Source: Tubiluchus corallicola
Taxonomy: Eukaryota; Animalia; Priapulida
Assembly (NCBI GenBank): GCA_030141605.1
Contig: JAQGDQ010000675.1
Span: 1 to 64,000, forward strand
Direction: 5' to 3'
DNA length: 64,000 bases
Shown: positions 3,701 to 61,306 of the stretch, piece after piece
Numbering within the stretch: the first letter of the stretch is position 1
Layout of the letters: each line of letters starts with the position of its first letter
Program-made: the position numbers and the translations under genes
The notes under the pieces: model-generated
Told to the model about the DNA's origin: nothing
Databases searched by the model: none
What the model saw: the letters and a program-made list of their open reading frames with translations, nothing else

Positions 3701-3886
3701 TCAAATATTTAATGCAAAATGCAAATCCAAAAATGCAGAGAAATGTACAAGATTTTACCTAACCCCTTGAGAACCAAAAAAGAACACAACAGGTAAACAA
3801 TTTCAAACACAGAAACAGATCAAGTGCTCTCACCATAGCGCTCATACATTTTGCACCATTTACAAAAAGGGGAACTACAATATGGG

Positions 3887-4005
3887 TGTTATGTATTAAT
3901 GCGTCAGAACGCATTGTAAATAAAGTAGTTCGGTAACACGCATAATGGTGTACTATGTTTCGTTATTTCTACTAGATAGAAATCCAGGTACATCAACATA
4001 AAACA
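3887..4005 (+). repeat. left LTR (119 bp, TGT...ACA), pointing inward
   Basis: Reverse complement of 7755-7873 with 2 mismatches by eye. Contains AATAAA. Directly followed by a PBS. Confidence 0.9.
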
Positions 4006-4023
4006 TGGTGTCAGAAGTGGGAT
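4006..4023 (+). promoter_or_regulatory. primer-binding site, 18-nt complement of tRNA-Leu(CAA) 3' end
   Basis: TGGTGTCAGAAGTGGGAT is the reverse complement of ATCCCACTTCTGACACCA, the conserved metazoan tRNA-Leu(CAA) 3' end including CCA. Confidence 0.9.
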
Positions 4024-7000
4024 ATTCTCTTGGTGTATTTCTGCGATTAAGTAGCGCCAAGTACGGATCTTTTCTAGCTTCGTAGCATTTAATAAGTATG
4101 TTCTTCGCTATACCAACTGATTTCTCTACTAATCCATTAGCTTGTGAGTGTCTTGGTGATATGCGGCTATGATCAAAAGCAAATTGATGTGCAAATTCAG
4201 CAAACTCATTGCTATTGAACTCTTTTTGGTATGCCGTGAGTACAAAACCATTTTTTGAGCTGTCTTATGACCGTAGATGCTTTGAATCTCGTTCTAATTT
4301 CTCAATCTCAAAAAATTCACTGTAGTAGTCAGTACAAATTAACCACTTGTAACCTAAGCAGTCAAACAGATCAGATGCTACATGTATCCAAGGACCTTCT
4401 GGAATTTCTGAAGGCATTAGTGGCTCTTTTTGTTGCTTCATTCTGTGTGCTTAACATGTTGCACATTTTGATACAATATCTTCTATCTGTTTGTTGATAC
4501 CTGGCCAATAAACAATATCTCATTCTAGTTGTTTACATTTAACCATACCTAGGTGGCTTTCATGAAATTATATCTAGCGTTCGTTTCTGCATTGATTTTG
4601 GCACAACCACTCTTCCACCTTTGAAGATGATTCCATCTATGTAGCTAAGCTCTTCTTGGAAGTCAAAATATGGCCTTACAAAAGGACTAACTTGTAATCT
4701 GTGTTCAGGCCATCCTTCGGGTGAAGTAATTACTCGCTTTAATTCTTGCAGTGCTTCATCTGTGACTGTTTCTCTTTTCATTTCTTCCAATCTCTTTGGA
4801 TTGATGTTCGATGTGCTAACAACTTCTTCTGCAGAGATACTAAAGATGTGACTGAAATCATCTGTTAAGTTTGGACCACTATCTGCAAGATATGCACGAC
4901 TTAGCGCATCTGTAACTGATATTTCTGTGCCTCTTTTAGCCACTAGTTTGAAGTCATATTGCTGCAATTTTAGTCGCATTCTTTGGAGTCTGAGTGGTAC
5001 TTGATATAGTGGTTTCTCTAAAATTCTGATCAAAGGCAGATGGTCAGTCTCTACTACTATGTCGCTTCTTTCGTATACAAAAGTATGGAACTTCTTCATT
5101 GCAAATACAATTGCCAGAAGTTCTTTCTTTATTTGTGCATATGCGCACTCTGCATCTGTAAGTGCTTTTGAGCCATAAGCAACTGGTTGCTGATTTTGCT
5201 GTAAGACACATCCTAGACCAGACATGCTGGCATCACAAGAGATAGTAATTGGCTCTGTTTGGCTGTAAAATTTCAAGGTTGGTGCTGTAGTCATCACTTT
5301 TTTAATTTGACGGACTGCTTCTATATGAACTTCATCGAAGTGCCATGAGAACTGTTTTTCGCTACTCTCTTTAATTAGCTGTCTGAGAGGCTCTGTTACA
5401 GTTGACAAATTGGGTAAGAATTTACATGTGTATGTAACCATTCCTAATAGCGTTTGGACTTCCTTTATGCACTTTGGCATTGGCATGTCAGTAACTGCTT
5501 TGACTTTGTCTGGATCGATCTGAACGCCTTTGCTACTGATAATATGGCCTGCATATTTAACACTTTCTTGACATAATGCTAGTTTTCTCGGTGAAAATGT
5601 GACATTATTCTCTCTGGCTCTTTGTAATATGCATCTTAGCAACTCAATGTTCTTTGACTGCTACTGAGTCTGCAAGTAAGTCATCAGTTATAATGTTCAA
5701 TTTCTCTATGTCTCCAAAGATTTCCATCATCTTCCGTTGATATAGTTCAGGGGCGGAAGATATGCCCATTGGAAGTCTCCTGTACATGTATCGGCCAAAC
5801 GGTGTGTTGAACGCTGTTAACAAGCTTGACTCTTCATCAAGTTCTAATTGGAAATAACCAGAGTTGGCATCTAGCACTGTGAAATGTTGGCTTCCACTGA
5901 CACGAGTGATTATATCATCAACAGTATTAATTGGGTAATACAAGTAAGGCTTTGTTTAAATCCTTAGGGTCAATTGTTAATCTCACATCAACATCTGGGC
6001 TTAACCCTTTCTTTTTCACAACATGTAATGAGCTGCACCAAGGTGTGGGAGTTCCTACTGGAATTTTTTCAATAATTCCCATTTCAACTAGTTCATCTAA
6101 TTTCCTTTTTGCAGGTTTACGTAAGGCTGCAGGAATGGGCCTTGGAGGGTGAGAGGGAAACTTTGCCAGGCATTTTTCCAATACCCTGAAACACATCTAT
6201 ATATTCATACAATAAAGCTGTAACTGCAGGAAATGGGCATTTTTCAATGCTTTCATGCACTTGTGCATTTGATGTAGGCCTATGTTCAACATGATTAACT
6301 CTTTGCAACAATTTTAGCTCAAGACAAGTTTCTAAACTAAGTATATTTGGTACACTGCCGTTTACTAGCTCACATTTCAACCAATAATTTGCTCCTTTGT
6401 ACACAACTGGTAATTCAACAACACGTAAAGGTTTAATGGGAGCACTACCAAAACCATACATAACTGTATTAGATTTAGCTATTTTAGGTTTAACGTATAT
6501 TGTATCATACTGCTTTTTCGAAATTACATTTACATCTGCAGCTGAATCTATCTTAAAGCTCATATTGCCGCCATCACGAAGTTTGAAATTCACAGTCCAG
6601 GCTTTCTTGCTGTCATCTGATCGACATGAAGCCTGATTTGTTTTGCTACACAAAATAAATGACTTATCTACACAGTTGTCATAATTATAAGTATTTCTTG
6701 AGTCATCATTTACACTTAGATTATTTACAGACCTACTCAGATCATGTTCACTATACATGCAAGCATCATTATGTGAAACATTCTGTGATTCTACACAGTT
6801 TACTCTTTTTCTGCATACTCTTGCAAAATGATTGTATCGTTTGCAAAAATTACATTGCTGCTGCCATGCTGGACATTTTCTCGGTGGATGTGAGTAACCA
6901 CAGCTGTAGCATGTACTATCATGCATTCTGAAACGTTGATTAAAACTGCGGTCACATTTCTGCGTGTATTTTCCTCGCTGTGAAGTATTGCTACGCTGTT

Positions 7001-7741
7001 GCTGGAACAACGCTAAGTCACGACGCTGCTAATTTTTGCTACTCGGCAAAACTGACTGTTGTCGGTCATTTGTTGAAAAATCATGTCGATGAATGTTGTG
7101 GTACCCACTTCTGCTTCTTCCACGACCACGAACAGTATTTATATTCACGTGCTGGTCTCCACTATTAATTGCTGTGTACAAAACACGAGACTGTTGTTGT
7201 TGCTCAAATAACTGCGCCCTTTTAAAATTTCGTCCAAGTTCAAATCTTCGCTCCACAGTTTTTCTCTTAACTTTGAGTCTCTTACACCATTGCTAATTGC
7301 AACACACAATTGGTTATTTAATCCATCACCAAATTCGCAACTGACAGCTATGTCTTTCAATGCAGTAATAAAACTAATGAATTCAGCAATACTCTCATAC
7401 TGACCTTGTTTTCTCTGCTGAAATTGTGTAATGTACCCTTTACGTAATTTTCGTGGTTCGAAATAATTGTCAAATTTAGTGGTGACTGCTGTATATTCAG
7501 ACTTTTCTTCGTCTGTTAAGTTAAGTTGTTGAAAACTTTTTGATATTCCTTGCCAATTGTGTACAGTAACAACGCAACTTTCTGTTCGCCATTAGCATTC
7601 TGCTTACCAGCGGGTGTCATGAACACGTTGAATTCGGCTTTAAATTCTTTCCAGTCCTGGGCGAGGTTCACTTTATCCGTGGAAAATTTTAGTGGCTTTA
7701 GATTCTCCATATTCTATTTACTTTGTTTTCACTAAATTTAT

Positions 7742-7754
7742 ACTTCTGACACCA
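7742..7754 (-). promoter_or_regulatory. primer-binding site (13 nt, tRNA-Leu) upstream of gag
   Basis: TGGTGTCAGAAGT immediately after the right LTR on the minus strand, ~30 nt before the gag ATG. Confidence 0.9.
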
Positions 7755-7873
7755 TGTTTTATGTTGATGTACCTGGATTTCTATCTAGTAGAAATAACGA
7801 AACATGGTACACCATTATGCGTGTTACCGAACTACTTTATTTACAATGCGTTCTGCCGCATTAATACATAACA
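7755..7873 (-). repeat. right (5') LTR, 119 bp
   Basis: TGTTATG...AAAACA on the minus strand, in the canonical 5'-LTR position relative to PBS and gag. Confidence 0.9.
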
Positions 7874-8777
7874 ATGGGAAATCAGCAACATGAGAATGGG
7901 ACACAGAGATTAAACCCACCAGGAAAAACTTCGAGGGACATAGTGAAACAAATTTCAAACACAGAAACAGATAGAGTGCTCTCGCCACTTCGTTCATTAC
8001 ATAATTCCATTCTGAAGCACTAAATATTTTCTTTATCATACGATTCACTTCAAATTTTCAGATTATTTTCATTACTTTTTTTTCTTTCACCGTGTGGGAC
8101 AATCTAACCAGCCCTGCTTTTTGATTACCCAAAACACATTTACATTTGTATATAGGTGAACAGTGTGAGGTTTTTCTTTTGCAGAAACAATTAAAACTTA
8201 TTTGTATTGTGCTCATTGTAGGCCCTTTCACTATATATTGTACAAGAAACTATTGTAAATGTGTAATGGGAAATAAATAACTTCTGAGAGTACGATAAGG
8301 TACCACCAATGACAGTTGAGTATTAAGAATTAAGCCATGCTTCAAAAAAGATGTATAAGTACCTTGAGATCTTGACCATTACTTGTACTATAATTATAAC
8401 ACTCTAATTGAAATGCTAAATGCAAAGTTGAAGCCAATCCAATCACCTCTGCATGCAGTATGGTGAGAGCCAAGCTGGCTTTTGCAATGCTCCCCAATTT
8501 TAGTACAAGGACGATGACCGGCACACAGCACTTGAAGAACTTGCCAAGTCGTTCACACTTGTTAGTTCACTTTCAGAGGGGAATCTCTACGTCTGAACAT
8601 CATCGTCATCTTAGGGGCTTCCGTTATCCAAGTGTTGGGCTTGGAATAGGGCACTAGCCGAAAAAGGGCAATTGGTGCAAATAGGCTAGCCCAAGTAGGA
8701 TGCGTAGTAGATGTGTTAGCCCAAGTATATTGGCTAATTCAGTTTGCAATGAATAGTAAAATAATGGTATTTCTTAA

Positions 8778-11737: not shown

Positions 11738-12075
11738 ATACACTCAACCTTGGATATAAGGGACACCTCCGGAAAAAATCGTCCCTTATATCAGATGTCC
11801 CTTATAGCCGAAACCAAGCTGTTCGAGGGCGGAGGTTAAATTGAGGTTAAAAATCGATCAATTTTGCTTTGATCAGAAGGGTCCGTTATATGCGAGGTAA
11901 TTTATCTGGGTTTCTATTACGCGGGACCCAAAGATGGATACATACACTCAACCTTGCATATAAGGAACACTTCCAGAAAAAATTGTCCTTTATCAGATGT
12001 CCCTTATAGCCGATGTTGAGTCAGACCGAGTGTAGACCTGTACTTTTACCCATATTTTTATGGATTATTGCTACG
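11738..12075. mobile_element. rearranged fragments of a Tigger/pogo-like MITE
   Basis: Two partial copies homologous (reverse complement) to the MITE at 43948-44389. Confidence 0.75.
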
Positions 12076-13615
12076 TATGAGTGTTCACGTGACTGAGAAG
12101 ATGACCTCGCTGAGAAAATGATTTTTCACACAAGTCACATTTGTGGGGTTTCATTCCAGTATGAGTGTTCATGTGCCTGAGAAGGTTACCTCGCAGAGAA
12201 AATGATTTGCCACATAAGTCACATTTGTGAGGTTTCATTCCAGTATGAATGTTCATGTGGCTGAGAAGGCTACCTCGCAGAGAAAATGATTTGTCACATA
12301 AGTCACATTTGTGGGGTTTCATTCCAGTATGAGTGTTCATGTGCTTGAGAAGATTACCTCGGAGAGAAAATGATTTGTCACATAAGTCACATTTGTGGGG
12401 TTTCATTCCAGTATGAGTGTTCATGTGACTAAGAAGATGACCTCGCTGAGAAAATGATTTGTCACATAAGTCACATTTGTGGGGTTTCATTCCAGTATGA
12501 GTGTTCATGTGCGTGAGAAGATTACCTCGCTGAGAAAATGATTTGTCACATAAGTCACATTTGTGGGGTTTCATTCCAGTATGAGTGTTCATGTGCTTGA
12601 GAAGATTACCTCGGAGAGAAAATGATTTGTCACATAAGTCACATTTGTGGGGTTTCATTCCAGTATGAGTGTTCATGTGCGTAAGAAGATGACCTCGCTG
12701 AGAAAATGATTTGTCACATGAATCACATTTGTGGGGTTTCATTCCAGTATGAGTGTTCATGTGCGTGAGGAGACTACCGCGCTGAGAAAATGATTTGTCA
12801 CATAAATCACATTTGTGGGGTTTCATTCCAGTATGAGTGTTCATGTGCCTGAGAAAACTACCTTGGAGAACAAATGATTTGTCACATAAGTCACATTTGT
12901 GGGGTTTCATTCCAGTATGAGTGTTCATGTGGATAAGAAGATGACCTCGCTGAGAAAATGATTTGTCACATAAATCACATTTGTGGGGTTTTATTCCAGT
13001 ATGAGTGTTCATGTGCTTGAGAAGATTACCTCGGAGAGAAAATGATTTGTCACATAAGTCACATTTGTGGGGTTTCATTCCAGTATGAGTGTTCATGTGC
13101 GTAAGAAGATTACCTCGCTGAGAAAATGATTTGTCACATAAGTCACATTTGTGGGGTTTCATTCCAGTGTGAGTGTTCATGTGCATGAGAAGACTACCTT
13201 GCTGAGAAAATGATTTGTCACATAAATCACATTTGTGAGGTTTCATACCAGTATGAGTGTTCATGTGCTTGAGAAGATTACCTCGAAGAGAAAACGATTT
13301 GTCACACAACTCACATTTGTGGGGTTTCATTCCAGTGTGAGTGTTCAGGTGCGTGAGAAGATTACCTCGCTGAGAAAATGATTTGTCACATAAATCACAT
13401 TTGTGGGGTTTCATTCCAGTATGAGTGTTCATGTGCGTGAGAAGATTACCTCGCTGAGAAAATGATTTGTCACATAAGTCACATTTGTGGGGTTTCATTC
13501 CAGTATGAGTGTTCATGTGCGTAAGAAGATTACCTCGCTGAGAAAATGATTTGTCACATAAGTCACATTTGTGGGGTTTCATTCTTGTGTAATGTTCAGG
13601 TTTCTTACGAAGCAT
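12071..13615 (-). CDS. tandem C2H2 zinc-finger protein, 18 fingers (paralog C, intact ORF, 514 aa from ATG)
   Basis: Open frame MLRKKPEHYTR + 18 x 28-aa units. The first ATG is at 13615. Candidate splice acceptors lie upstream (~13700 and ~13755), so the true start is uncertain. Confidence 0.85.
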   Translation of the reverse strand: MLRKKPEHYTRMKPHKCDLCDKSFSQRGNLLTHMNTHTGMKPHKCDLCDKSFSQRGNLLTHMNTHTGMKPHKCDLCDKSFSQRGNLLTHLNTHTGMKPHKCELCDKSFSLRGNLLKHMNTHTGMKPHKCDLCDKSFSQQGSLLMHMNTHTGMKPHKCDLCDKSFSQRGNLLTHMNTHTGMKPHKCDLCDKSFSLRGNLLKHMNTHTGIKPHKCDLCDKSFSQRGHLLIHMNTHTGMKPHKCDLCDKSFVLQGSFLRHMNTHTGMKPHKCDLCDKSFSQRGSLLTHMNTHTGMKPHKCDSCDKSFSQRGHLLTHMNTHTGMKPHKCDLCDKSFSLRGNLLKHMNTHTGMKPHKCDLCDKSFSQRGNLLTHMNTHTGMKPHKCDLCDKSFSQRGHLLSHMNTHTGMKPHKCDLCDKSFSLRGNLLKHMNTHTGMKPHKCDLCDKSFSLRGSLLSHMNIHTGMKPHKCDLCGKSFSLRGNLLRHMNTHTGMKPHKCDLCEKSFSQRGHLLSHVNTHT

Positions 13616-15830
13616 GTTCCAATAGCAAAAATATTTATTGTACTGACCACAGCTGCAAGCTTTAAGTACGTTTATCCACAACTGCCGACACTCGGTTTCC
13701 TAAGATTGTAGATCACAGTTGCGAGACTTCAATTCACGTGCAGGAGGCGACAACTATATTGAAAAGAAACCTAAAATAAAATTTACAGTTAATAGTGCAG
13801 CATCCATATTGAGCGCGTTATTATTACAGTAAACTTTGCATAAAACATGATCAAACAACTAAAATTTTCACCTAACCCAAAGAACTTCAGCAGAAAGGAT
13901 GAAATCCTTTGTTTGTTTCGCAAAAAACATCAATTAACTCAAATTTTCGCCTAACTGAAATAAAAAATTATGGTCCATTTAATAAAAAATGGGTAACTTA
14001 CTTCTCCTTACTCCAAAATGCAATTTATACTCTAGAAAAATGAAAAAGTTTTGTACAATTCAAAAACAGTATCGTCTTCCGGGAAAATTCTGATAAGGCA
14101 TACCCCACTTCCAATTATTTTCTGTGGGATAGATCTTTGCGTGTTGTTCACGAGTCCTTTTGCAACATGAAAAATGGTGTTTCCCTACATAATTTGTTAA
14201 ATTTTATATAATTGTCACCAAATCTCGTCGTTTATGTCTAGAAGGGTCAACTTTCTGTCTTCTATTTAGCTCGCCATCTGGAGGAGAGGTTTAGAGTTTC
14301 TACGCTGAAAAAAGGTCTTCATCACCAAACTCAAAATGTTTTTTTCAGTCGTTTAAATTTGAGTTATGCGGATTTTACTGTATAACTATGCAACAGGTTT
14401 CAACTTTAAGAACACAATCTAGAAACTTTGTCTACTGGCACTAAAGCAAATAGTGCTAATAAACCTCATGGAGGCAGCGACAAATTAACCATTGGGCTAA
14501 CTAGGCTATAGACTTAAGCCCTAATTTATAATAGGGCCCCAAATTCCTGAGACTGATGACCAATCAAACAGAAATTATGCAATTTAGTAAACGGGATAAC
14601 AAAATCATCTAAACAGAACATGCTAAAGATGAGTTTGTTTCAACTTGTTTATTTAGCGACTAGTGAAACCATAATTAAACTATAAATCAAGCCAAAAAGA
14701 AGAATAAGAAATATATTAATAATAGAAAAGTGCAAACTGAAACTACATTTTTACAAAAGACTAGACGTGAACTTGTCAAAATAAACAAGGTTGTACCAGA
14801 AAAAATGCAGAAAAATGTACAAGATTTTACCTAATCCTTGAGAACTAAAAAAGAACACAACAGGTAAACAATTGATCCAAGTTTACAATGAAACACCGCA
14901 GCAGTAGGCAATATAAGAATAAAACACAACTCGCACATTTTGCATCCTTATCATATATATCATTCGCCTATCACGCATCATTTCCAAAAAAGGTAACTAC
15001 AACATGGGAAATCAGAAAGATGAGAATGAGAAGCAGAGATTAAACCCACCAGGACCACTACAAACATCGAGGGACAGTCAAACAAATTTGAAACACAGAA
15101 ACGGATAGAGTGCTCTCACCGCTTCATTCATTACATCATTCCATTCTGAAGCACTAAATGTTTTTTTATCATGTGATTCACTTCAAATTTTCAGATTATT
15201 TTCATTACTTTTTTTCTTCCACTGTGTGGGACAATCTAACAAGCCCTGCTTTTTGATTGCCCGCAACACATTTACATTTGCATATAGGTTAACAGTGTGA
15301 GGCTTTTCTTGTGCAGAAATAATAAAAACTTATTTGTATTATGTTCATTGTAGGCCTTTTCACTATATACTGTAAATGTGCAATGTGAAATAAATGACTT
15401 AAGAGAGTGCGATCAGGTACCACCAATGATAGTTGGGCATTAAGAATTAAGCAGTGCTTCACAAAAAATGTATAAGACTGCCGCTACCTTGAGATCTTGA
15501 CCATTACTTGCAATATAATTATAATGCTCTAATTGAAATGCTAAATACAAGGTTGAAGCCAATCCAATCACCTCTGCATGCAGTATGGTGAGAGCCAAGC
15601 TGGCTTTTGCGATGCTCCACAATTCTAGTACAAAGACGATGACCGGCACACAGCACTTGCCATGTCGTTCACACTTGTTAGTTCACTTTCAGAGGGGAAT
15701 CTCGACATCTGAACATCACATCATCTTAGGAGCTTCCGTTATTCAACTGTTGCGCGTGGAGTAGGGCACTAACCAAAACAGGGCAATTGGTGCATATGGG
15801 CTAGCCCAAGTAGGATGCATCATACATGGA
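13590..15830. repeat. segmental duplicate of the ZnF upstream region
   Basis: 13590-14160 aligns with 2795-3370, 14800-15008 with 3730-3886, and 15004-15820 with 7874-8705. A single ATGGG (15004-15008) marks the empty retrotransposon site. Confidence 0.9.
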
Positions 15831-36226: not shown

Positions 36227-39200
36227 TTAAGCAGCTTCCAAGCGGGATTTCAGCAAAGCATCCAACTTCCTAGAGTCTGCGTTGAATTTACGAATTCCCT
36301 CCGAAAGTTTGTCATTGGCCATCTGATCTTCGTTCATTTCCCAACGGAATGTTTTTTCATCAAATGTGACCTTTTCCAAGTTTAAACTTTTGGCTGCAAA
36401 AATCAATTACCAGTCAAAACCAAGAAATTTCTTCTAATTTGAATGAGAACTTTTTAAACAAAAACGAGTTCTTTTTAAAACGCTTTACATGCATAAATCT
36501 TTCCCGAATTTTAAACATGAAAAGCGAATGATGTGCAGTCGTGCATAGTTTCAAGCAAAATTTCTTCGAAGTTAACTAGATTTTTAATACCTATTACTGT
36601 TTTTGGACAAATTTCATTACATTTCAGTACGGCAATGATTGTCCCGCACGCAAACTAGCAACTGACTTGATTTTAGCTTGAATGCTTAAATGAGCAAAAT
36701 CAACCAAATAACTCAACCATGCTGAACATGCCCATTTGCACACCAAGATCTGCCATATTGTTTCAAATGAAGACAGCATGATTTTTGATATACTGCCACT
36801 ATTTTAAATCTGATAAAAAGTATATATTTTAACAGAATTAATACTGCAAAAGCATTTCTGATAATTAGATAATAGATTAAAAACTTAATTAACAGCAGGC
36901 CAGCCCAGCCGTTGATGACATCACAAACTAACATGATTTGCAACAGCAAAAATATTCCACGATCGCGTTGCATGTGTTTGTGAAAGAGAAAATTGAAGTA
37001 CAGTGCTACTGTAAACTATTCAGTGTGTTGTACTAAAACTAGGCAAGTTTTAAGATAAAAATTCAAATCGCAGATTTATCGCTGTGTTCACGCATAAGCT
37101 GTTGAACGTGTGTAGTTTGTCACAACCTGTTTTTTGTGCAACGCGTCTTTGAAATACAGATGCTAGTGTCCGTGTAACTATTGAATGGCAAAATGCATGT
37201 GACAGCGAAGAACTACTGGCGCGAACGTGAAATTGTGTTTGTGTGGTAATAATACTTTCACGTAAGTAATTTACATAAGCAAATGCCATCCAAACTAGCA
37301 CAACACTGGCATGGTTTTCAGCCAGAAACAGAAACTTATAGAACTAATGAAGAAGAGAACAACTAAGCCGTCATTTCACCAAGCTCAGTACCCAAGACCA
37401 GATCTAAATGCTAAATAAAGCAGTCAACACCAGGCCTTGAGATAGTTAGGCTCTTTAACTAACCATTTAAACGTTACTAATTGCAGTCGAATAACCGTCT
37501 AACTCTTTCTGATGATGTCATACATTCACTCATTCATTCCCTGAACGAGTAAGCAGTGGGGTTCAAATCTAGCACGCGCCAGCGAGAATGTCCAACATGG
37601 CGACATCCTCGTAACCGACGCGAGTGAAAAACATTTTACACTGTTTGGGCAATCAGATTAATTGAAACAATATTGTAAATAGTACAGTTTTATGTAAGCG
37701 GGACATTGCTAACTGCGTACGCCAACTCAGAAAAGAAACAAGGTTTCATTAATACGGATACGTAGAAAACTTGGCTAAGTGATGGTTAAACGGTTAGTGA
37801 TTTTCTAGACGGTTACACAGGTTAGCAGTCGGCTGAACTGTAATTGATTTTCTAAATGGTTACACCAATTAGAAGTCGGGTAGTAGTTTAAACTGTCTCA
37901 ACTGTTACACATATAAATTTATAGCATTGTAACAGCACAGAGTTAAGCACAAAATAAATAAAATGTTCAAAAACTAAAAAAAACTAGTTTTACCTGTGTC
38001 AGGACAAAGATGGCGTGTAACTGAGGTCTTGCTTGCTTCTAATTCACCAAGCAGCTTGGGACTATAAAAACACAAACTGTCAGAGAAGCGGCAAACATGT
38101 GTTGAAGGTCCACAGTAAACAAAATGTACTTTAACCCTTTCACTACGGAAGGCGACACAGTGCCGCCTATGTTTTTCATGTAAGGGATGGAATGCAAAAC
38201 ATTGTAGAAAAGTTTAACAGCCCTAGGACTGGCGTTGCTTCGCAACAAGTAACTCAATCAGTGTCTGAAACCCGGTGCATTTCACAATACTGTACTGTAT
38301 GGTAAGTTCCCATGCAAAATCACTTGTAGATCGTTGATGAAACGTATGTTTAGTTGATTGTTCTGCATTCTTATCAAATGATTGCATATTATGGATTAAT
38401 ATTGTGTCTTTTGTGAAAACTGGTTTCTAAATATAAGTACATGCTTATTTATGATTGTGAGCACATGTGTGTGGGTGCGTGTGTGTGCGTGCGTGCGTGC
38501 ATTAGTGCATGTGTGTGTGCTCGCATGTGTGTGCATGTGTAGGAATAAAACTGATATTTAGTATTAGTACTCAGCAACGAACAATTATTTGTTTATTTAC
38601 AAAATTCTGTTTTAGTTACACACCACAAGAAGTTATTGTCAAATGTGCAAAAGTCAATGTGGCCCAGTTAAAAAGCAACAACGTAGCAAAAGGGTTAAAT
38701 TAACTCACAGTTACACCAGATCAATAATGTACCAGTCCGTCCGGTACGAAATTGATAAAAATTCTATCAGACGTTCTTTTATAATGAAATAAGCAACACT
38801 ACCTGATGGTCAGGAGGTCACATCCGGCCAGGGCTAAAATTTCTCCAATGTTTCTGAACGAGGCACCCATCACGACGGTCTTGTAGTCAAATTTTTTATA
38901 GTAGTTGTAGATTTTAGTGACGCTCATGACACCTGGGGGAGAGCAAAATAAACATTCATCGCAAGTTTTTACGCAAAATGGACCAAAAAGTCGCACATTT
39001 TCAGAAATAAACGTCCTCAGATTTGTACTATAGCTGATGGTAATACGTCTCATGCATGTATGATCATCAATGATACCTACTACGTCTCATGCATGTATGA
39101 TCATCAATGATACCTACTACGTCTCATGCATGTATGATCATCAATGATACCTACTACGTCTCATGCATGTACGATCATCAATGATACCTACTACGTCTCA

Positions 39201-42200
39201 TGCATGTATGATCATCAATGATACCTACTACGTCTCATGCATGTATGATCATCAATGATACCTACTACGTCTCATGCATGTACGATCATCAATGATACCT
39301 ACTACGTCTCATGCATGTATGATCATCAATGATACCTACTACGTCTCATGCATGTATGATCATCAATGATACCTACTACGTCTCATGCATGTACGATCAT
39401 CAATGATACCTACTACGTCTCATGCATGTACGATCATCAATGATACCTACTACGTCTCATGCATGTACGATCATCAATGATACCTACTACGTCTCATGCA
39501 TGTATGATCATCAATGATACCTACTACGTCTCATGCATGTACGATCATCAATGATACCTACTACGTCTCATGCATGTACGATCATCAATGATACCTACTA
39601 CGTCTCATGCATGTACGATCATCAATGATATCTACTACGTCTCATGCATGTACGATCATCAATGATACCTACTACGTCTCATGCATGTATGATCATCAAT
39701 GATACCTACTACGTCTCATGCATGTATGATCATCAATGATACCTACTACGTCTCATGCATGTATGATCATCAATGATACCTACTACGTCTCATGCATGTA
39801 TGATCATCAATGATACCTACTACGTCTCATGCATGTACGATCATCAATGATATCTACTACGTCTCATGCATGTACGATCATCAATGATACATACTACGTC
39901 TCATGCATGTATGATCATCAATGATACCTACTACGTCTCATGCATGTATGATCATCAATGATACCTACTACGTCTCATGCATGTACGATCATCAATGATA
40001 CTACTACGTCTCATGCATGTACGATCATCAATGATACCTACTACGTCTCATGCATGTACGATCATCAATGATACCTACTACGTCTCATGCATGTATGATC
40101 ATCAATGATACCTACTACGTCTCATGCATGTATGATCATCAATGATACCTACTACGTCTCATGCATGTACGATCATCAATGATACCTACTACGTCTCATG
40201 CATGTACGATAATCAATGATATCTACTACGTCTCATGCATGTATGATCATCAATGATACCTACTACGTCTCATGCATGTATGATCATCAATGATACCTAC
40301 TACGTCTCATGCATGTACGATCATCAATGATACCTACTACGTCTCATGCATGTACGATCATCAATGATACCTACTACGTCTCATGCATGTATGATCATCA
40401 ATGATACCTACTACGTCTCATGCATGTACGATCATCAATGATACCTACTACGTCTCATGCATGTATGATCATCAATGATACCTACTACGTCTCATGCATG
40501 TATGATCATCAATGATACCTACTACGTCTCATGCATGTACGATCATCAATGATACCTACTATGTCTCATGCATGTATGATCATCAATGATACCTACTACG
40601 TCTCATGCATGTATGATCATCAATGATATCTAATATCTGCACTTGCAAACAGAAATCGTTCATAAGTTGGCATAGTTCAAACTACGCTATGATGCTTCAC
40701 AGTGGGATACACCAAAAATTTGGTCAAATGTTAATTTTTTGTTTTATGACAAACCAACGCTAAATATATTGGACTTTATATTCTAGCACCAAATTGTCAA
40801 GAAAATGGTTAAAAAATACCGAAAATCTATTTTTAAAACCCTGTACTCTCTTTTCTGTCTAGAAACTAGTAATGCAATCGAGAAAAACTTGTATTTTCAA
40901 ACTCCGGTAGTAGCTCACGGAAGCAATCATTCTGCCTCAGTTTTTTTTCTGTTGCCAAGCCCAAATCTTCATCAGAAAGAGCCATCTACTGGATTTAAAC
41001 GTAACTTCAACGTGTTCTTGCAAAGTCTGTAGCAACCAACATTTGTACGGTTGCTAAGTGTTTTGAAGAAACACGACAAAAAACAATGGTTAACTTTAAC
41101 AACGATTTTCTCAAGATTATATTTTTCAGTGCGTAGCCTGCACCTCAACTTCAATGTGGATTATCACAGCTTAGAAATAACACAGAGCGATGAACTTGGT
41201 ATCAAAATGATCCTCTTGAAATGGAGATTCAGGATATGTGAATAACTAGAAAAGCTTAATTGCCGACTTATGGACGATTTTGCTATCCAAGTACACTTAT
41301 AGTCTTATTCATCAATTTTATCATAAAGTTACTGTTTCATTTTAGCACTAACAGACCAAACACAGTTTAATTAGAATTGCAATCATAATAAAATTTTCGA
41401 ATGTCGTTGAATATATTTAAAAAATTAGGCAGAGTTGAGTACTAGAGGTATTTCTTCAAACCCGTTGAAACGGCCAAAACCATATGTGCAAAAGTTCTAC
41501 GTAAACAAAACTTATAAACACAGTAAAAAAGTCAAACTAAAATAAATACATAAATAGTACTTGAAAAGCATAATTAGAAGATATTTTATCACTTAGGTAG
41601 AGTTCATTAGCTAGTTCATTGCTTATGGACGACTTTGCTATGCAAGCACACATATCATTCTTAAACAATGAGTGAATACCATTTGTTCATATACTCTCGT
41701 TTGAAATTCTACTGAATTTTCAAAAACAAAATTTTCTAGAAAATTAGTCAACAAAAATGTAACGTGTTAAAGATAAGTAAGTTTGACGGCTCACAGCAAT
41801 GGCTAAAAGTATCTTCTTGACCACATGACACATGTCCGATTTTTGTTGGATAACTACGACGGACATTTTTGTTAGACAGCAAAAACTGGAAGTCAAAAGT
41901 CAGGTAGATCTCAGAGCCCACCAATAAAAAATGGAATCGTAATTATAACAAAGCATGAAAACTCGTTAATTAGACTCACCTGGATCTTGCAAAGGTTCAA
42001 AAGACTTCTGCGCCGTATTGGCAACGAACCAGTCTAAAATCCTTCCCACAAACGGGGAGATTAATGTAACGCCTGCCTCTGCTGCCGCAACCGCCTAGAA
42101 ATGAGAACATATAATTAGACATTATAGGTCCACATTATAGGTAAATTAAGTTCAGATCACAAGGTTAACAAAATGAATTTACCTTACCTGAGCAAAACTG

Positions 42201-45200: not shown

Positions 45201-48200
45201 TATGTATAGTGTTAAATATGTCATGTAGAATTTAATGTGCTTTCGTAAAATTGTTTTGTAAAAATATTTTAATATGATGTTTGTAAATATGTTCATTTAT
45301 TGTATATAGTTTTGCACTTTAGTTTTTTTAGTATGCACTGGACGCATTTGTCTTGAACAGTGTTGTTATGTTAACATTACGCTTAGGCTTAGTCAATTTT
45401 ATTATAATGAGTGAACCATTTTAATGACAAATAAAGAATTAATATATATATATATATGTTTTTGTTTGGATTCATAAGTGCATGATTTGCACATTCTTTT
45501 ATATTGGGTTATTCCATGTCAATTCACCCAAAATTTTGGATCATCTTCACTCGACCATCTTAGATTTCGATGAAACTTAACATCGGTATTGGGCCTTATG
45601 AGAATAGTTTATGTTCAAGATTTTAGGTCAATCGGTCCATCGGATCAGAAGTTGTGAGAATTTGAAATTTTGGGCTTTTCACACTCTTTCGCGTTTGCCT
45701 GAAATTTCAAATATTCACATCTCAATACCTACTGGAACAAAATTCACGGGAGAGATTAACAAAATACCTCGCATCAACTTCTGTAGAAACACGACCTGGC
45801 ACTATTTTCAGTATTTCCGAACCAAAAAGAACAAACAGCTTGTCAGCAGCTTCCGAAACTTGCTCAGCAACAGTCCTAGGGATAAAAAAAACATCGAAAT
45901 GAAATCATTCGTCAATGATTCATTTTTCAAAAGTTGGTAAATTTCAACGAGCTAGAAAAAAGTTACATAAGAAAACATCAAATTCTGCACTATCATTTTA
46001 TTTACAAAGCTTAGAATACTGTTACTTGAGCTTTAAATAAGCAGTTGTACAACAGTAATCTATAATAATAATAATAACAACAACAACAACAGCAACAACA
46101 ACAACAACAACAACAATAATAATAATAATAATAATCTTTATTTAAAGTCGGCTTTTGGGTCAACAATTAACATTAGCTCAAAGAGCTATTATCGCCGACT
46201 GTAAATAACAACCTACAACTGCATAACAGAGACTATTATTACCCCACTTTTACCCTAAATACCACGCGTCAGGCAGGGCAACAGCAGGTACCATTTTTAA
46301 AGTCTTTGGTATGACCCGGCTGCTGGTTCGAACTCACAACCTCCCAGACGGAAAGCACACGCATTACCACTAGACTAAACCGTCTGGTCAAGTATGCAAT
46401 CTGGGTCGATATCAAGCATAATTCTCTAAGTTGTAGGCTTGCCATATTAGAAAACTAGCAATACGGGACACTCTTAAAATCCCTTTCTATATTACTTTAT
46501 TTACAAACTTATACATGCCTACAAACCCGGACAAACATACTATACAAAAGTAGAGACATAAGCTAAAAACATAAAGCAAGGATTTTAATGGGTTATGAGG
46601 AAAGCAAAAGTATAATCATTTGAACATTATTTAATACAAGCTAAAACAATTATGTAAAGACGAAATCATTTGAAAATATTTATTTAATACAAACAACAGA
46701 GAAATATCATTATTATTATTTAATACAAGCAATATAGGTAATAAAAGAAATTCTGAGAAAGTGAAATTACTGCAAAATTCTTATTCAATAGAAACAATAT
46801 AAAAAATATATAAAATAATACAATATACAATATACAATATATATAATATACACAATACAATACAATACAATATAAAATTATTATTTAATACAAACAATAC
46901 ATAAAATAAACTAAAAAAGTTGTTTCATATGGAGACAAACAAAACTGAAAAATAGTTTCTCTTATGAAAAATATTTTTACGAAACATTTTACGAAATCAT
47001 ATTTTTATTATGAAATTATAATATTACAAAATTACAAATACTGAAATTATTACAAAACACGGGACATTTGGGTGTCCCAGAAAGATCAGTATGGGATAGG
47101 GGTCAAAATTACCAAATATGGGACATGTCCTGCATGTAAGGGGGACATCTGGAAACTCTGCTAAGATGAGACAAAAAAACAACCGTAAGTGTAAATGGTG
47201 CGGTGCATTTTAAAAACAATTAGTTCAGCTAACAAGAAAAGAAAATTAGCAGAAAGTGCAACGTTTTTATAACTAAAAATTTTCTAAAGTTGTCAAGTTT
47301 CTACGTAACATCAAATAGTATCAAGAGTTCAAGAGTTTTGCAAAAATTAATTAATGAATCTGTATTTGCAAGAAGGTATAGAAATTATATTATAGTATGA
47401 TTATTATTTGTACATACTTTCCATGCGTCTTCCCATATTGTATTGCACTATCAAAAAGTGGCTGGTACTGAGGCATTTGCGAGGCAGCCAGTACAAGGGA
47501 TGGATTCGTGGTTGCATCCGTTGGCTTGTATTGCTTCATGGCTAAAACAGAACAAAATTCAATTCAATTTATTTATTAACTCCGCAAGAATGATAAAAAT
47601 ACAGTATCAGGAATACATGCAATATTTCGAAGCAAAGGAGAAGGGCAGCGAAGAACCCGTAAGTTATCTAGTCAGCCACCCTTAAATAGCTATGATTAAA
47701 TAAAATTAATTTTGGCATCGTTCTCAATTTAAATTTGTATTCGGTTGATGTGTGTAATTGGCAATTAAATGATAGATATCGTAATACTGTAGAACATTTT
47801 AGTTTAAATAACGAAAGATTTACAATTCTAAAATACTGTGAATCATGCGAAGCAAACACAATAAAAATAACTTAAGATTTATAACATAACAGAAAATGCA
47901 TAATTTGAGCATTAACTAAAAAATCCGGCAAAAAAACAAAAAACAGTAGAATGATCAACCAAAGTTGTCGAGAAAAAATATAATAGATTAAACCAAGGAA
48001 AAATAAGGCAAATATAAAATCTATTGTTAAAATTTACGATTATTTGTCCATTAAATATTGTCAAGGTGTTATAGGGCTACAGACTTCTCTGTTATTTTTT
48101 CTGAAGTATTTCCAGCTTCTTGTTTTGAACAAACTATAGCCAATAGAACATTGATTAGTAATTACTTGTACCAAGCGGAACCTCATGAATGGCACCTAGT

Positions 48201-49780
48201 AAAAAAGCTTTCTGATCCAATGAAGCATTTTACTGTTAAAAAAGGTAACGAAAAAGCTGACAAAGAGGCAGTAACTTTCGGGCAGCCACTCTGTAAACAG
48301 TTTGTCTTTCGTGCACTCTGTCTCTGGTGAAGCAGACTTTAAACTACTTCACAGTTTGGCTAATTGGAAAAGGTTATCTCTTATCATTCATATCTCTTAT
48401 TTTTCCTTATTATCTTATTTTTCCTTAGCTTAACTTATTATATTCTGTTTATGAACATCTTTGGTTGATCATTCTACTGTTTTTTATCGGATTTTTTTAG
48501 TTAATGCTCACATTATCCATTTTCTGTTATGTTAAAAATTTTAAGTTACTTTTATTATGTTTGCATCGCATATTTACAGTATTTTAGAATTGTAAATTTT
48601 GGTTATTTAAATTATAATGTTCTACAATATTGCATTTCCCATCAGTTAATTGCCAATTACACACGTCAACAGAATTCAAATTTAAATTGAAAACGGTGCC
48701 AAAATTAATTTTACTTAATCGTTGCTATTTAAGGGTGGCTGACTAGATAACCTACGTGTTCTTCACTGCCCTTCTCCTTTGTTACGTAACATTGCATGCA
48801 TTCCTAATACTGTATTTTGTTAATTCTTGAGGAGTTAATAAACGAATTAAATTGAATCTTATCAAATTGTTATGGTTGCAATAGTGAAAACAGAGAAGTG
48901 ATTTATCTCAAAATAAACAGACTTGAACTCTGTTTATAAAAATGGCAGTTCAGTGCACTTTTACCGACACAATGTACTACAAAACGATCGTGGAAGAGAG
49001 CCGTTACAAAAGATTACAATAGCAAAGGTTTTGCTACTTTTTTTCAGTACTGATGATGGTAGCACTCTTCATGTAATAATCAATTGTACAGTCTGTAAAA
49101 TAAAAAATAGTAGTTCATGTAGCAAAGTAAAAATGAACAGTAGATTTTAAAAAGTGCTAAAATAGACACATTATTAATGTTTTGTCTTGAAGTGACCTCC
49201 TGAAAAATGAGATTTTTGCTACAGTGAAGGATAAGAGGTGAATAAAGTGAAATATTAATATTGAAGGAGATTCATAATTTCTTCAAGCTTTTCAGATGGA
49301 GGGGTCATTCGCATACCACTTATCGTATTACCACCTTGTAAGGCAACAGATAAACGCTGGAATAAAAAGCTTGTAGACCTAGTCTCCCCTGTGGCACAAC
49401 TGAATTCGTTTAACAAAAGTACCAAGATATTTTTCCTTCAGCGCCAATAGTGCCAACAGTTTCAACAGCAATTGGTATAAAATTGAAATTTGGCAGAAGA
49501 TTGTTGTATTTCCTACATTTTCTGTTTTCGGCTAACTGAGCTGCATAACCAGCGTAACTGGATGAGCCAACCAAATTTGAGTGTGCCAATGTATCAACAC
49601 AAGTAAAATCCCAAAGTTAGTTCCAAACTATCAATGTGTTACAATTCATTACAAGTACAGGAATTTGTTATGCAACAAATGAAAGGTGGTGTATTTTATT
49701 AAAGCTGTCTCACCTTCAAAGTCTCCGGTGTCAGCAACCACAGTAGTCACTGCTTTCAACTGCTCTAGCTGACTTGCCAT
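36227..49780 (-). CDS. TALDO1: transaldolase, 9 coding exons, 323 aa
   Basis: Exons 49780-49714, 47541-47418, 45875-45768, 43397-43266, 42248-42188, 42094-41980, 38932-38803, 38061-37994, 36393-36227 join in frame with GT-AG ends (972 nt). Motifs [55 protein letters not shown]. Confidence 0.96.
36700..37275. repeat. dispersed repeat (unclassified TE)
   Basis: Homologous segments at ~52760-53140 and ~60470-60625. Confidence 0.7.
39044..40630. repeat. 37-bp minisatellite, ~43 copies, in a TALDO1 intron
   Basis: Unit TACGTCTCATGCATGTA(C/T)GATCATCAATGATACCTAC, very homogeneous. Confidence 0.95.
42560..43165. repeat. foldback-like element of short degenerate repeats
   Basis: TTGGACAC-type motifs in the left half and GTGTCCAA-type reverse complements in the right half. 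Confidence 0.55.
43948..44389. mobile_element. Tigger/pogo-like MITE
   Basis: TIR CAGACAACCTCGGGTATAAG / CTTATATCCGGGGTTGACTG with TA flanks. Confidence 0.85.
46040..46388 (-). mobile_element. tRNA-derived SINE with Meta core and (ATT/GTT)n tail
   Basis: Minus strand: A box TAGTCTAGTGG, B box GAGTTCGAACC, then GGGTCATACCAAAGACTTTAAAAATGGTACCTGCTG (MetaSINE-like core), and a 3' end ...GCCGACTTTAAATAAAG followed by a microsatellite tail. Confidence 0.8.
47555..48858. repeat. long inverted repeat (~440-bp arms) in TALDO1 intron 1
   Basis: 47555-48010 is the diverged reverse complement of 48415-48858. Both arms end outward in AATTG-type tails. A related motif (AGGGTGGCTGAC...GATAAC) lies at ~18910. 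Confidence 0.85.
49295..49617 (-). mobile_element. 5'-truncated CRE-like non-LTR retrotransposon, restriction-like endonuclease fragment
   Basis: Translates to [11 protein letters not shown]...[13 protein letters not shown]...[10 protein letters not shown] and, after a frameshift, [14 protein letters not shown]. Confidence 0.8.
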
Positions 49781-55262: not shown

Positions 55263-55758
<496 letters not shown>

Positions 55759-56128
55759 CCTGCATGGCATAGGGCCTGATATAGTTTATTTGATACATCA
55801 CTGATTTATACAATTCGACAAGCTGCTTACTGAAATTAATTACAATATTTAGAAGTATTAGCGACTAGGCCTATATTTATATAATATATTTAAATCATGC
55901 ATATTTATGGTATATATGTAATACTAATGAAGTCATATAAATTGAAAAAAAATTATTACTAATAATAAGTTATTTTATTTACACAACATAATTACATATA
56001 TATGGTACGCATGTGAAAGGGAAAGGCTATAAGTTTATTATAATTATTACTAGTAATTATTGTATGTACACTAATTATTGAATAGTTGATGTTATCTACG
56101 AAGTCACGAATATTAGATCTGTAATCAT

Positions 56129-56523
56129 TAGGGGTGAACATCGACCGTCGAGTTCGATTCGAACGAGTTTTTTAATTCGAAATTGATTCGAATCTAAAAT
56201 TATAGTTTCGAATAATTCAGTACTTGAACCACATACGTTCTTTTGTCATTAAAACGTTTAAACGTCACGCAATTAGCACAATTTAGTAGCGACCTCTGTG
56301 CGCAATTTTTAAACTAATTATCGGTGCTTCTATTGCAGAGCAAAATCGAGTAATATGCACGATCTTCGTAAAACCGCGTTACGCTGAGGGTTCGAAAACT
56401 TGTTCGAAAATCTTTCAAACTCAATTCGCATTCGAAATGCTGAAATTCGATTTGATTCGAATTCGAAAGTCACTAATTCGGTTTGATTCGAATTCGATTT
56501 CTGGTAGAGAATGCTCACCCCTT
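56129..56523. mobile_element. hAT-type MITE with ATTCGA subterminal repeats
   Basis: Ends TAGGGGTGAACAT / ATGCTCACCCCTT. Near-perfect 8-bp TSD GTAATCA(T/C). Related fragments at ~50900-50990 and ~27100-27170. Confidence 0.75.
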
Positions 56524-56839
56524 GTAATCACTGACCATATATTTTGTTTTTTTCTAGAAAGACGTCATCTTATGTAGACAATTCAATTTGTTTTAAGTTT
56601 ATTTATCAGCTTTGGTATAAAGAAACCGTCTCATGTGCAAAACGGATTATTGTGATTCTGGTAGCGTCTAGCAGTGGATCATGAATACAATATTTGCCAC
56701 AGTCGTTTCCGGCTGTTACCGTTGCCGGGTTTAAATCAGAAGAAAACATTCGTCTTGAAATTTTACATTACCTACATGCAATCTTATTGCATACAGAGCT
56801 TGTATTAGCAGTAACACTGTATAAAACTTGCAAATTTAA

Positions 56840-57180
56840 TCTCAAGCGATGACCGTTAGACGCAGCCATTTTAATGGTAGGTCATTTTAAACACGTTTAG
56901 ATAACATTCGGTCAAGTTTGAAGAAATAATCAGAGCATTCGTAGCGCACACGTCACTAACAAGTAAAAGTATAAATTACTTTATATTGTCAATAAGATCA
57001 CTAATGCGTTTTTTGTGAACCGGTGGTGCACACTGGGATGGCTACGAAGCGAATATTTTAAATTATTATTTTTGATAATTACATAAGTCTCTCGAAAACG
57101 CAAGGTAACGGAAGTAATATAACTTTGTGTGGGAAATTTTTGTGACATAATTTAAAGTGGCCTTCCCTTCCCTTCCCTCC
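56840..57180. repeat. dispersed repeat
   Basis: Colinear with ~19550-19900 (CCATTTTAATGGTAGGT...AAACACGTTTAGA). Confidence 0.7.
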
Positions 57181-57198
57181 CTTTTAAAGACTAGAATT

Positions 57199-57729
57199 TT
57201 AATGATTAAACAGCATGTACTGTAACTTTGCTGTCTCATTTTTCAAGACAGCTATTTGTGCACGTAATTTCAAATTCTCCTGCTCTAAAATAACAGCTCT
57301 CATCGCGATCTCCTCTTCCTTCTGTCTGCGCATATCACGTGACCTCTTAGCTGCGTCGTTGTTCTTGCGACGTCTCTCCCAATAAGCGGCGTCCTTTTTT
57401 TCTTCCGGCACCGGTTTTACTTTACGTTGTTCGGAATCGGACGACAGCCGTCGCTTGCGGAACAAGCCGGATATAGTCGCGACGGGTCCAAAAGCAGCCA
57501 TATTGGATGCATAACCGGGATATGATGACGTCATTGTTTGATGATAGTGGGGGTAGTGTTGTGAGAGGGGTGCATCGGAGTATTGATAGAGTGAAAACGG
57601 AGGATGAAATGTAAGTTCTTGAGCTTGAGTAACCACCAAGGGAGCATCTTCTGTTTTCCCAGTTACAACTTTCTGAGGAATCGGCTTCTGAAGCCCTTTT
57701 GTTGAACTATAAATGATAGATCCCTCCAT
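57199..57729 (-). CDS. PAR-family bZIP transcription factor, CES-2/giant-like (176 aa)
   Basis: KVKPVPEEKKDAAYWERRRKNNDAAKRSRDMRRQKEEEIA followed by a leucine zipper ending LQYMLFNH. The first ATG (57729) follows a plausible acceptor TTTTTACACTTAG, so the longer ORF from 57876 is probably intronic read-through. Confidence 0.9.
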   Translation of the reverse strand: MEGSIIYSSTKGLQKPIPQKVVTGKTEDAPLVVTQAQELTFHPPFSLYQYSDAPLSQHYPHYHQTMTSSYPGYASNMAAFGPVATISGLFRKRRLSSDSEQRKVKPVPEEKKDAAYWERRRKNNDAAKRSRDMRRQKEEEIAMRAVILEQENLKLRAQIAVLKNETAKLQYMLFNH

Positions 57730-58249
57730 CCTAAGTGTAAAAAATTCACGAGTTAAAAAAGTTAGTACACGATTATATTCAGTGTTATCATAAATACGAT
57801 TAATGAGTCTTTTCACAGTTTCGTTGTGCGCACGCGCATGTTGCTGTAGATCAAAAGTTAAGTGTATCTGTACCACAGCAACAGGTCTTACTCTTAACTA
57901 CAACAGTCAAGAGACGTGTCTAAAGCGCAGCCGTCTGCCGCATCAGTTCAGTAACTTCAGTTGTTTTACGTTGACCTTACGTACTTAATTATGCATTAGG
58001 CTATGCGTAGAGTGATTTACTAACAGGATCTTGCTTGGGAACAAGAAAAAATGAATTAGGCAATGTTCTAGCTAGCTGTTAAAAATTGTTACTATTACAA
58101 TAGCATGGGCTGCGAGGCGTTGGTCAAGTGCACATAAATGTGTTGTCTGGTACTCTTAACCTTTGACCTTTTTCACGATCATCATCAATCGCTGCAACTG
58201 TTAAAAGCCTTAATGCGGTAATTAAAGGCACTAATACAACAAAAGAACC

Positions 58250-59330
58250 AAAGAAAAAATAAGTAGATCTATAGAAATTAAAAAATAAAAATAAATAAGA
58301 AAAGAGAAAATATTAGCATAAAAAATCAGACAGAATTAAAATGCATACAAAAATACAAAAATAAAAATATAAAAATATGAAAGGAGGAAAAATAAGAAAA
58401 GCAATAATGAGAACAGACAAGGAAAAAACAAAAAGGAAAAGTAGAGAAAAAGATAAAAAGAAAGAACGAAAGAAATAGGCGAAGAAGCAAAGGAAAGAGA
58501 AAAAAGTCAAAAAGTAAAATGAAAAGAATATTTGGAATAGAAGAAGAAGAACAGAATTGGAGCAGAAGGGAAGAGAAGAGAGGTGAACAAAGAACTGGAG
58601 GGTTACAAGAAGGAAAGAGAGAAAAATGAAAGAAAAGAGAAAATAAAAGTAGAAAAGAGACGACGAAAAAATAAAACAGGAGTGAAAAGCAAAGAAGAAT
58701 ATATGGGAGAAGAAAAGAAGAGGAAAGAAAATATTCAAGAAAAGAAAAGAAGAAGAAAAAAGAGAAGAAAAAGAAAATGAAAAAGGAAAGGAAAATGAAA
58801 AGAAAGCAAAAGGAAAGAAAAGGAAAGGAACAAAAAGGAAAGAAAAAAGAAAAGAGAAAACAAAACAAAACAAAAAAGAGAGGAAAGGGAAAGCAAAAGA
58901 ACTCAAAGGAAAAGAAACGAGATAGAAAAAGAAGATAAGAGAAACATAAATACTGAAAAAAGCAAAAATAAGAGAAAAGAACAAGATAAAAATGAATAAA
59001 ATGAAAAGAGAATAAAAGGAAAACGGCGAAAAACAAAGAATTGATAAAAAGGTAAAGTAAAGAAAATGAAAAAGTAAATACAGGAAATAAAAGAAAAAAG
59101 AAAAACAAAGAAAGAGAAATTCAAAAGTGCAAAAAATCTGAGGTAAATATCACGATGATGGTCAATTAAGATGCACTTGTAAGCATAATTACCTAACCAC
59201 TTAATATGTAAGAAACAAATTAAAAAGATATTACAAAAGAGCAAAAAACAAAAGAAAGGATATGAAGGAAAAAGAAGGGGTAAAATAAAGAAAATCAGAA
59301 AAAACATTGTTTCCCAAAGAAAAAATTAGA
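58250..59330. repeat. purine-rich (A/G) low-complexity tract
   Basis: About 1 kb of A-runs punctuated by G. Confidence 0.85.
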
Positions 59331-60139
59331 ACTGATAAACCTACCTCGGCTTCCGGTGAAGCCTTTATGCAAAAAAATTTACAAATTAAGCAATCACAAC
59401 GTAGCTTGATTTAAATGTCGTTTCTAAAATCGAGGTTCATCATGGTTTATTTACTTAAAATGATGAAAATGTTTGCTTGTTCTGTGTAAACGGTTTTCAA
59501 AACAATTGCACAAATAAAAAGTTTTCAATCCAAAGCTGACCACAGCTGCAGTCGTAATGACTACATGTTAACAGACAAAACTACGAATGACCATATATCA
59601 CTATGTACTTATATACGTAGCTCGTTTATTATCATGAAACAATACTTGCGTCATTAGTAGAGGACGGCCTATTTGATCTCGCATCCTGTGTACTGCATCC
59701 AACCGCGCTGTCTATGTTAATGTATACGCAACCTTGGTTTTGGAGTGGCTACTCAGGATTTCTCAGAGCCCGGGGAATCCTAAGTACCGGGTTTGCGTTT
59801 ACATTATACAGTGAATGGAGCGAGAACTGGTTGTCCAGAGTGACGTAAATCCACTGCGGTTAACTTTGCGTAATCCCTTTCTGTATTAATGGTCAGCCTG
59901 TTGTGGACAGCGGTCGAAATCCTGCGCTGGATTGAGCCATATTACGCATCGACTATTAAGAACGAGTTATTGTGTAATTAATTAATTACACTGAAAGCTA
60001 CAGAACGCGTAACTCAGGTGTAGGGACCTTATTAATAGAATCCTGTTGCATAAGCTTAGATAAAATAGATATCAAACGCGCAGGCGCGCTTTCCTAAAAT
60101 TAGGCAAGGGTTAAATTTTATGAATCGACTACTTCGACT

Positions 60140-61273: not shown

Positions 61274-61306
<33 letters not shown>

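Follow-up and report, generated by a model that had tools for sequence, protein, structure and literature searches.

The question raised by the locus described here is how a retrotransposon came to be enclosed by long terminal repeats (LTRs) in inverted rather than direct orientation. The locus lies at 3882–7878 of a 64,000-nucleotide stretch of DNA from the priapulid Tubiluchus corallicola (GenBank assembly GCA_030141605.1, contig JAQGDQ010000675.1, positions 1 to 64,000 of the forward strand; this whole stretch is referred to as the window) and holds a decayed Ty3/Gypsy element. We find the insertion to be real and unusual, and well accounted for by a single copying mishap of a familiar type with a rare internal signature; we see no sign of a new family. 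With a probability that we put at roughly 0.8, a dead-end plus-strand strong-stop DNA was joined 3′-to-3′ to a stalled plus strand, and the resulting molecule with two U3 ends was inserted once by integrase.

Structure of the element and its target site

The two ends of the element are arms at 3887–4018 and 7742–7873, which a repeat finder identified as reverse complements of 132 nt with 98 % complementarity and which on direct comparison show two mismatches, at 3904 and 3954. Each arm has at its outer end an LTR of 119 nt (3887–4005 on the plus strand, with its U3 end outward, and 7755–7873 on the minus strand) that reads TGT...ACA and is followed immediately inward by TGGTGTCAGAAGT. The insertion is flanked by ATGGG at 3882–3886 and 7874–7878 (plus strand), a target-site duplication (TSD) of 5 bp established by sequence comparison, and a paralogous zinc-finger repeat unit contains a single ATGGG at 15004–15008 (plus strand), the empty site. 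The right flank of the element aligns with the paralogue from 15004 onwards (86 % over 844 columns), while the final ~30 nt of the left flank align with it up to 15008. The probability of a 5-nt TSD match by chance is p ~0.0014. No purine run of at least 10 nt was found adjoining either LTR on the inner side of the element, and the five such runs within it all lie well away from its ends. The layout far exceeds what chance would give, and all of this agrees with a first-pass annotation, made from the letters alone, which had claimed inverted LTRs with TGT...ACA ends and a common inward sequence, no polypurine tract (PPT) beside either LTR, and one ATGGG duplication with an empty paralogous site. 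The window contains no N, and neither a second LTR copy nor a copy of the internal region was found elsewhere in it. The surroundings include tandem C2H2 zinc-finger arrays with an 84-bp period in duplicated units (243–2824 and 12071–13699, minus strand); the first array lies ~1 kb away from the insertion, and the empty site is within the second unit.

Read from the right LTR, the minus strand carries in turn a primer-binding site (PBS), a leader, gag, protease, reverse transcriptase (RT), RNase H and integrase. The true 5′ LTR (7755–7873) is followed by a genuine 13-nt PBS (7742–7754), a 31-nt gag leader (7741–7711), gag with its ATG at 7710 and Cys/His knuckles together with a protease motif (6153–7710), RT and RNase H (4566–6154) and, as located by protein alignments, an integrase cut after its RNTPR motif (4026–4567). 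The closest proteins are Gypsy polyproteins with ~60 % identity, and the best match among solved structures in PDB is Ty3 Gag-Pol (E 6e-25). There are ~8 frame breaks: near 7520 and 7222 in the gag and protease region, near 6153, 5941, 5645 and 4566 in the RT and RNase H region, and near 4275 and 4218 in the integrase, where the stretch in which relatives have the second catalytic Asp has no match. RNA folding of the 5′ LTR and leader was no better than that of shuffled sequences (z −0.73).

In all 11 aligned relatives (of 120 related proteins) integrase similarity stops at the RNTPR motif, within 4025–4028 or, on a wider count, 4025–4031; two of them continue weakly to 4013, a run-on judged spurious. 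The motif was found in 49 of the top 60 relatives, in which a median of 197 residues lies beyond it (range 47–242). Since homology ends at RNTPR and the relatives extend ~197 residues further, the inverted module, to judge from these alignments, stands in place of the integrase tail, the PPT and the normal 3′ LTR. A unit of this kind, with no PPT and no direct R repeat, would not retrotranspose again.

Unequal tRNA matches at the two ends

The first-pass annotation had assigned a tRNA-Leu PBS to each LTR. Matches to the tRNA are indeed present at both ends, but they are unequal, with 18 nt at the left (4006–4023, plus strand) and 13 nt at the right (7742–7754), and the left one has the appearance of copied primer and not of a site for priming. 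The earlier reading had overlooked both this asymmetry and the fact that the integrase cut abuts the left tRNA match. The reverse complement of 4006–4023 is identical to the last 18 nt of a tRNA-derived fragment labelled Leu-CAA (PMC8632637), and the same 18-nt string appears, unlabelled, in PMC12025293. The left match thus comprises the 3′-end complement of tRNA-Leu(CAA) over the length of the family PBS plus 5 nt; five extra matching tRNA letters would be expected by chance with p ~0.0006. Because the extended 18-nt motif is present only once within the element, other parts of the element were not its source; no tRNA gene was found in the window. Between this match and the start of integrase homology there are only two bases, 4024–4025, which lie outside both the tRNA complement and the part shared with sibling pieces, these matching from 4026. 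Elsewhere in the window, a tRNA-Leu-complement-like motif, the 18-mer with one inserted base, occurs at 61017–61035 (plus strand) without a preceding LTR-like CA end.

Related loci and sibling contigs

We compared the element with 78 related Gypsy loci from metagenome contigs (best 80 of at least 392 confirmed). Long-range direct repeats were present in 42 of the 78 and inverted LTR pairs in none, by a test that does detect the inverted pair of the window, although this zero is weakened by the bias of short-read assembly against inverted repeats. All 32 PBS sites consisting of CA followed by TGGTGTCAG (30 loci in all) have coding-strand orientation and match tRNA-Leu(CAA) over 9–15 contiguous nt. 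Two of the sites (L012:1844 and L034:103) have a near-18-nt PBS, with 17 and 16 of 18 letters matching, as against 9–15 nt at the other 30.

Closer relatives were sought in sequencing runs. Of six runs listed, four contain part of the stretch (share 0.25–0.46); they represent at most two samples, and all consist of short-read contigs, which show presence and not absence. Contigs were compared at the level of the junction in two of the four, X1 and X3. At 4058, 4078 and 4106 all contigs differ from the window, and so they do not represent the copy of the sequenced individual. One contig in X1 and one in X3 depart at 4018 into letters identical to the window's own gag leader; this is the 13th nucleotide of the tRNA match, which sets the family PBS at 13 nt. 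Pieces of integrase (two contigs in X3 and one listed piece in X1) start matching at 4026 and have other letters before it, which from their position would be the integrase continuing. No piece bridging 4023–4026 was found among those listed in X1 or X3, and no contig among those listed spans the whole element. In X3 the depth at 4024–4032 is 69.9, exactly 7/9 of the 89.9 recorded from 4026 on; in X1 it is 463 where 320 is expected, an excess that may stem from short pieces running on from the PBS.

The same contigs bear on the source of the two ends. At LTR position 69 the two LTRs of the window carry A, as opposed to G in X1 and X3 (depths 28756/29427 and 331.7/331.7), and a rare A common to both ends makes it likely, on sequence grounds, that both derive from one template. 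An X1 contig covers 5789–6076 with one difference and no gap; the RT break near 5941 is thus common to another copy, and the donor element was probably already defective and used enzymes supplied in trans. No family PPT was evident in the runs, the loose ends before 3887 being mixed (agreement 0.45 and 0.54, and 0.59 in X4, with a purine-rich end). The summed depth in X1 over the LTR is ~70 times that over the integrase (29427 vs 411.5), a ratio of depth and not of copy number. Contigs of LTR and LTR-PBS sequence (3887–4023) far outnumber gag-pol contigs in X1 and X3, and at 3957 the two samples do not have the same commonest LTR variant; there may be solo LTRs or a subfamily that is non-autonomous.

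Proposed origin

The layout, the TSD, the 18-versus-13 asymmetry and the integrase cut point are observed directly; the order of events given here is reconstructed from them. Mis-transfer of strong-stop DNA is described in the older retrovirology. We propose that copying of the tRNA-Leu primer by an initial plus-strand strong-stop DNA went on to 18 nt, an end point that we take to be the stop of copying before m1A58. Extending 5 nt beyond the family PBS, this product would have been unable to make the normal second transfer and would have been displaced, as in Ty1 and Ty3. A later strong-stop DNA would then have transferred normally, and the plus strand would have grown up to the integrase core. 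There the two 3′ ends would have met, with pairing over at most ~2 nt, and each would have been extended on the other. Finally integrase, probably acting in trans, would have used the two TG...CA U3 ends and generated the 5-bp duplication. The left end would accordingly be the first strong-stop product, putatively captured at 3887–4023 as the LTR plus 18 nt, and the right end the transferred product with the genomic 13-nt PBS. What is found at the left end, a full LTR and a tRNA complement that is longer than the genomic PBS and ends by 18 nt, is what would be expected of a captured strong-stop DNA. As the U3 end, TGTTATGT, is similar to the inward-read U5 end, TGTTTTATGT, it is a plausible integrase substrate.

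There are precedents in yeast. In Ty1 and Ty3 primer copying by the first plus-strand strong-stop DNA goes past the PBS; this DNA is then displaced and builds up as a dead-end product, in Ty3 within particles, and the transfer is made by a later strong-stop product (PMC5371799). In the yeast clone MK44 foreign DNA is joined to the PBS plus two extra tRNA-complementary nucleotides, a structure ascribed to a strong-stop intermediate; any DNA ending in TG...CA can be inserted by Ty1 integrase, with a 5-bp duplication as the result (PMC2939329). The proposal in the first-pass annotation that a two-U3-ended DNA from aberrant reverse transcription was integrated in one integrase-type event is supported, and can now be specified as a probable capture of strong-stop DNA.

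Alternative explanations

Several observations weigh against capture of strong-stop DNA. By-products of reverse transcription are not alone in having an 18-nt match: at two of the 32 PBS sites of relatives the tRNA is also matched at positions 14–18, so that native long PBSs exist in the clade; one X3 contig extends to 4023 before departing into other sequence; and the depth in X1 stays at 7124 through 4015–4023, compared with 463 just beyond. The left end could thus have been donated by a subfamily whose native PBS is 18 nt long. Moreover, there is one contig per sample behind the 13-nt family PBS; the joint corresponding to the empty site (3881 to 7874, with five shared letters), seen in 4/4 runs and in itself a point in favour of a single insertion, may come from paralogues; the left flank is covered by an X3 contig (depth 10.1) that may or may not enter the LTR; and the order of strand events is unreadable from the product. 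One alternative is that of two insertions or a later rearrangement, in which the left LTR came from a sibling with a native 18-nt PBS, by nested or head-to-head insertion and deletion or by gene conversion, or is a flipped 3′ LTR. LTR plus 18-nt PBS sequence does seem to be present elsewhere in the X1 and X3 samples, the two sites of relatives that match at positions 14–18 speak for it as well, and an endogenous retrovirus of the guppy with an inverted 5′ LTR, mentioned without a mechanism, has been tentatively ascribed to recombination (PMC5210030). However, this explanation requires a deletion with its end point no more than 2 nt from the 18th tRNA letter, exact outer ends under one TSD with nothing missing relative to the empty paralogue, and a rare LTR variant common to both ends, and we regard it as unlikely. 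A 3′ LTR flipped in place would still have its PPT and would have acquired no PBS; such a flip and autointegration are both rejected, as neither produces a second PBS bearing additional tRNA letters.

The first-pass annotation had also entertained an undescribed, dual-primed family with inverted LTRs, to which can be added a family moved as DNA by a trans-acting integrase in the manner of Ginger. The clean TG...CA inverted ends with their TSD would suit a propagating family, and so would the excess of LTR-derived over internal contigs, since unseen non-autonomous forms could exist. Nevertheless, none of the 78 related loci is inverted against 42 that are direct (subject to the short-read bias noted above), 32/32 PBS sites are on the coding strand, the junction is unbridged by any listed X1 or X3 contig with the X3 depth falling to precisely the fraction given above, and the integrase core is broken. 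Dual priming meets a further objection that rests on established mechanism: since both PBSs lie 5′-terminally on their strands, the only priming they allow is outward and across no more than 119 nt, and the first strand transfer would lack a direct R repeat. We consider such a family very improbable. Nuclear end-joining, by which a broken cDNA was ligated to a double-stranded LTR end fragment before integration, would equally account for two extra bases and little or no junction homology, but the fragment must still carry the 18-nt tRNA copy and would hence still be a strong-stop product; we know of no description of a double-stranded strong-stop fragment with a tRNA copy as an intermediate, and give this route scarcely any credence. 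Least likely of all is an assembly artefact. The junction is unseen in the runs found, none of which is from the same individual, and the region is a repeated gene cluster; against this, the LTRs differ at two sites, the five extra tRNA letters are found nowhere else in the element, the TSD is exact relative to the empty paralogue and the window is free of N.

Other features of the window

A 6.4-kb stretch at 55263–61670 is bounded by inverted repeats (54 nt at 93 %, with further arms containing GA microsatellites) and encloses an open reading frame with a bZIP domain (57202–57897, minus strand). It is possibly a DNA transposon carrying host sequence; no 8-bp TSD was seen at this stretch by eye. 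At 47554–48860 there is a 1.3-kb fold-back element with arms of 263 nt and 94 nt at 86–87 %, resembling a miniature inverted-repeat transposable element, and at ~38890–40500 a tandem array of a 37-bp unit whose copies are ~98 % alike, with one 73-nt spacing break. An open frame of at least 679 amino acids at 61963–63999 (minus strand) has matches to low-density lipoprotein receptor class A and EGF-like domains just below the Pfam cut-offs.

Significance and comparison with known systems

The insertion is a single dead copy without demonstrated function, yet it seems to be the chromosomal record of a reverse-transcription intermediate that is familiar chiefly from yeast particles. If capture of strong-stop DNA is the correct explanation, animal Gypsy elements with a short PBS over-copy the primer to 18 nt and recycle plus-strand priming like Ty1 and Ty3, and Gypsy integrase accepts two U3 ends in vivo. 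This explanation also provides a cheap test for every inverted-LTR insertion: the inverted end should exceed the family PBS in tRNA letters. A much broader proposal is that such capture is a recurring one-step route to units with inverted integrase ends, supplying the missing step from Gypsy to Ginger1 as well as convergent promoters; a join after an intact integrase would then create a ready-made DNA-transposon precursor, and double-stranded RNA from the convergent promoters could silence the family. We hold this to be doubtful, with only a small chance of being right.

By descent the element is, as judged from its sequence, Ty3/Gypsy (Metaviridae-type): it has the order protease, RT, RNase H, integrase with a Gypsy-type RT, an LTR with TG...CA ends, a PBS by the 5′ LTR and a TSD in the 4–6-bp range. 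Its LTR termini fit the Mag C motifs TGTNATRT and AYANAACA (PMC3601003, Table 3), and on these end motifs it is probably Mag C/SURL-like. It resembles Ty3/Gypsy elements further in having gag ahead of these domains, a short LTR, a tRNA-Leu PBS and a duplication of 5 bp. Unlike them, it has inverted LTRs with no adjoining purine run, no PPT, no 3′ LTR, no integrase C-terminus, a second, longer tRNA complement and ~8 frame breaks, and is an aberrant derivative of the canonical structure. We found no published description of exactly such an inverted-LTR Gypsy product, which is weak evidence of novelty as the older retrovirology literature was thinly covered.

Inverted terminal repeats around gag and RT are also characteristic of DIRS-1. 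However, DIRS elements use a tyrosine recombinase, whereas the present element has the remnant of a DDE-type integrase, tRNA primer sites and a TSD; DIRS identity was rejected on the integrase homology, with no recombinase match among the seven frames scanned. The inversion circles produced by autointegration are, like the proposed molecule, products formed within particles in which an inverted part separates the LTRs, but they arise by attack of LTR ends on the element and have neither two PBS-bearing ends nor extra tRNA letters (PMC7197481).

Ginger1 presents a parallel in layout, with inverted ends of 40–270 bp starting TGTNR around a Gypsy-type integrase (PMC2836005). It has a 4-bp CCGG/CCGT TSD, a full integrase with GPY/F and no RT, and Ginger1 identity is ruled out here by the 5-bp ATGGG, the truncated and dead integrase and the retention of gag and RT. 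No mention of tRNA sequence in Ginger terminal inverted repeats was found in PMC2836005, where neither 'tRNA' nor 'PBS' appears (0 occurrences). The path from Gypsy to Ginger1 is called unclear in that paper, which suggests two opposite LTRs from separate insertions flanking an integrase. One copying event, in place of two insertions, would be a one-step alternative origin for such terminal repeats, as a possible route only, the integrase here being dead. There is a likeness in mechanism to Ty1 clone MK44 (PMC2939329), in which other DNA was likewise inserted after joining the 3′ end of an LTR-PBS intermediate with tRNA letters beyond the PBS. In MK44 the partner was transformed foreign DNA in laboratory yeast, whereas in the natural genome of T. 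corallicola the plus strand of the element itself would have played this part; a partner of that kind, unlike that of MK44, would give inverted LTRs and two U3 ends.

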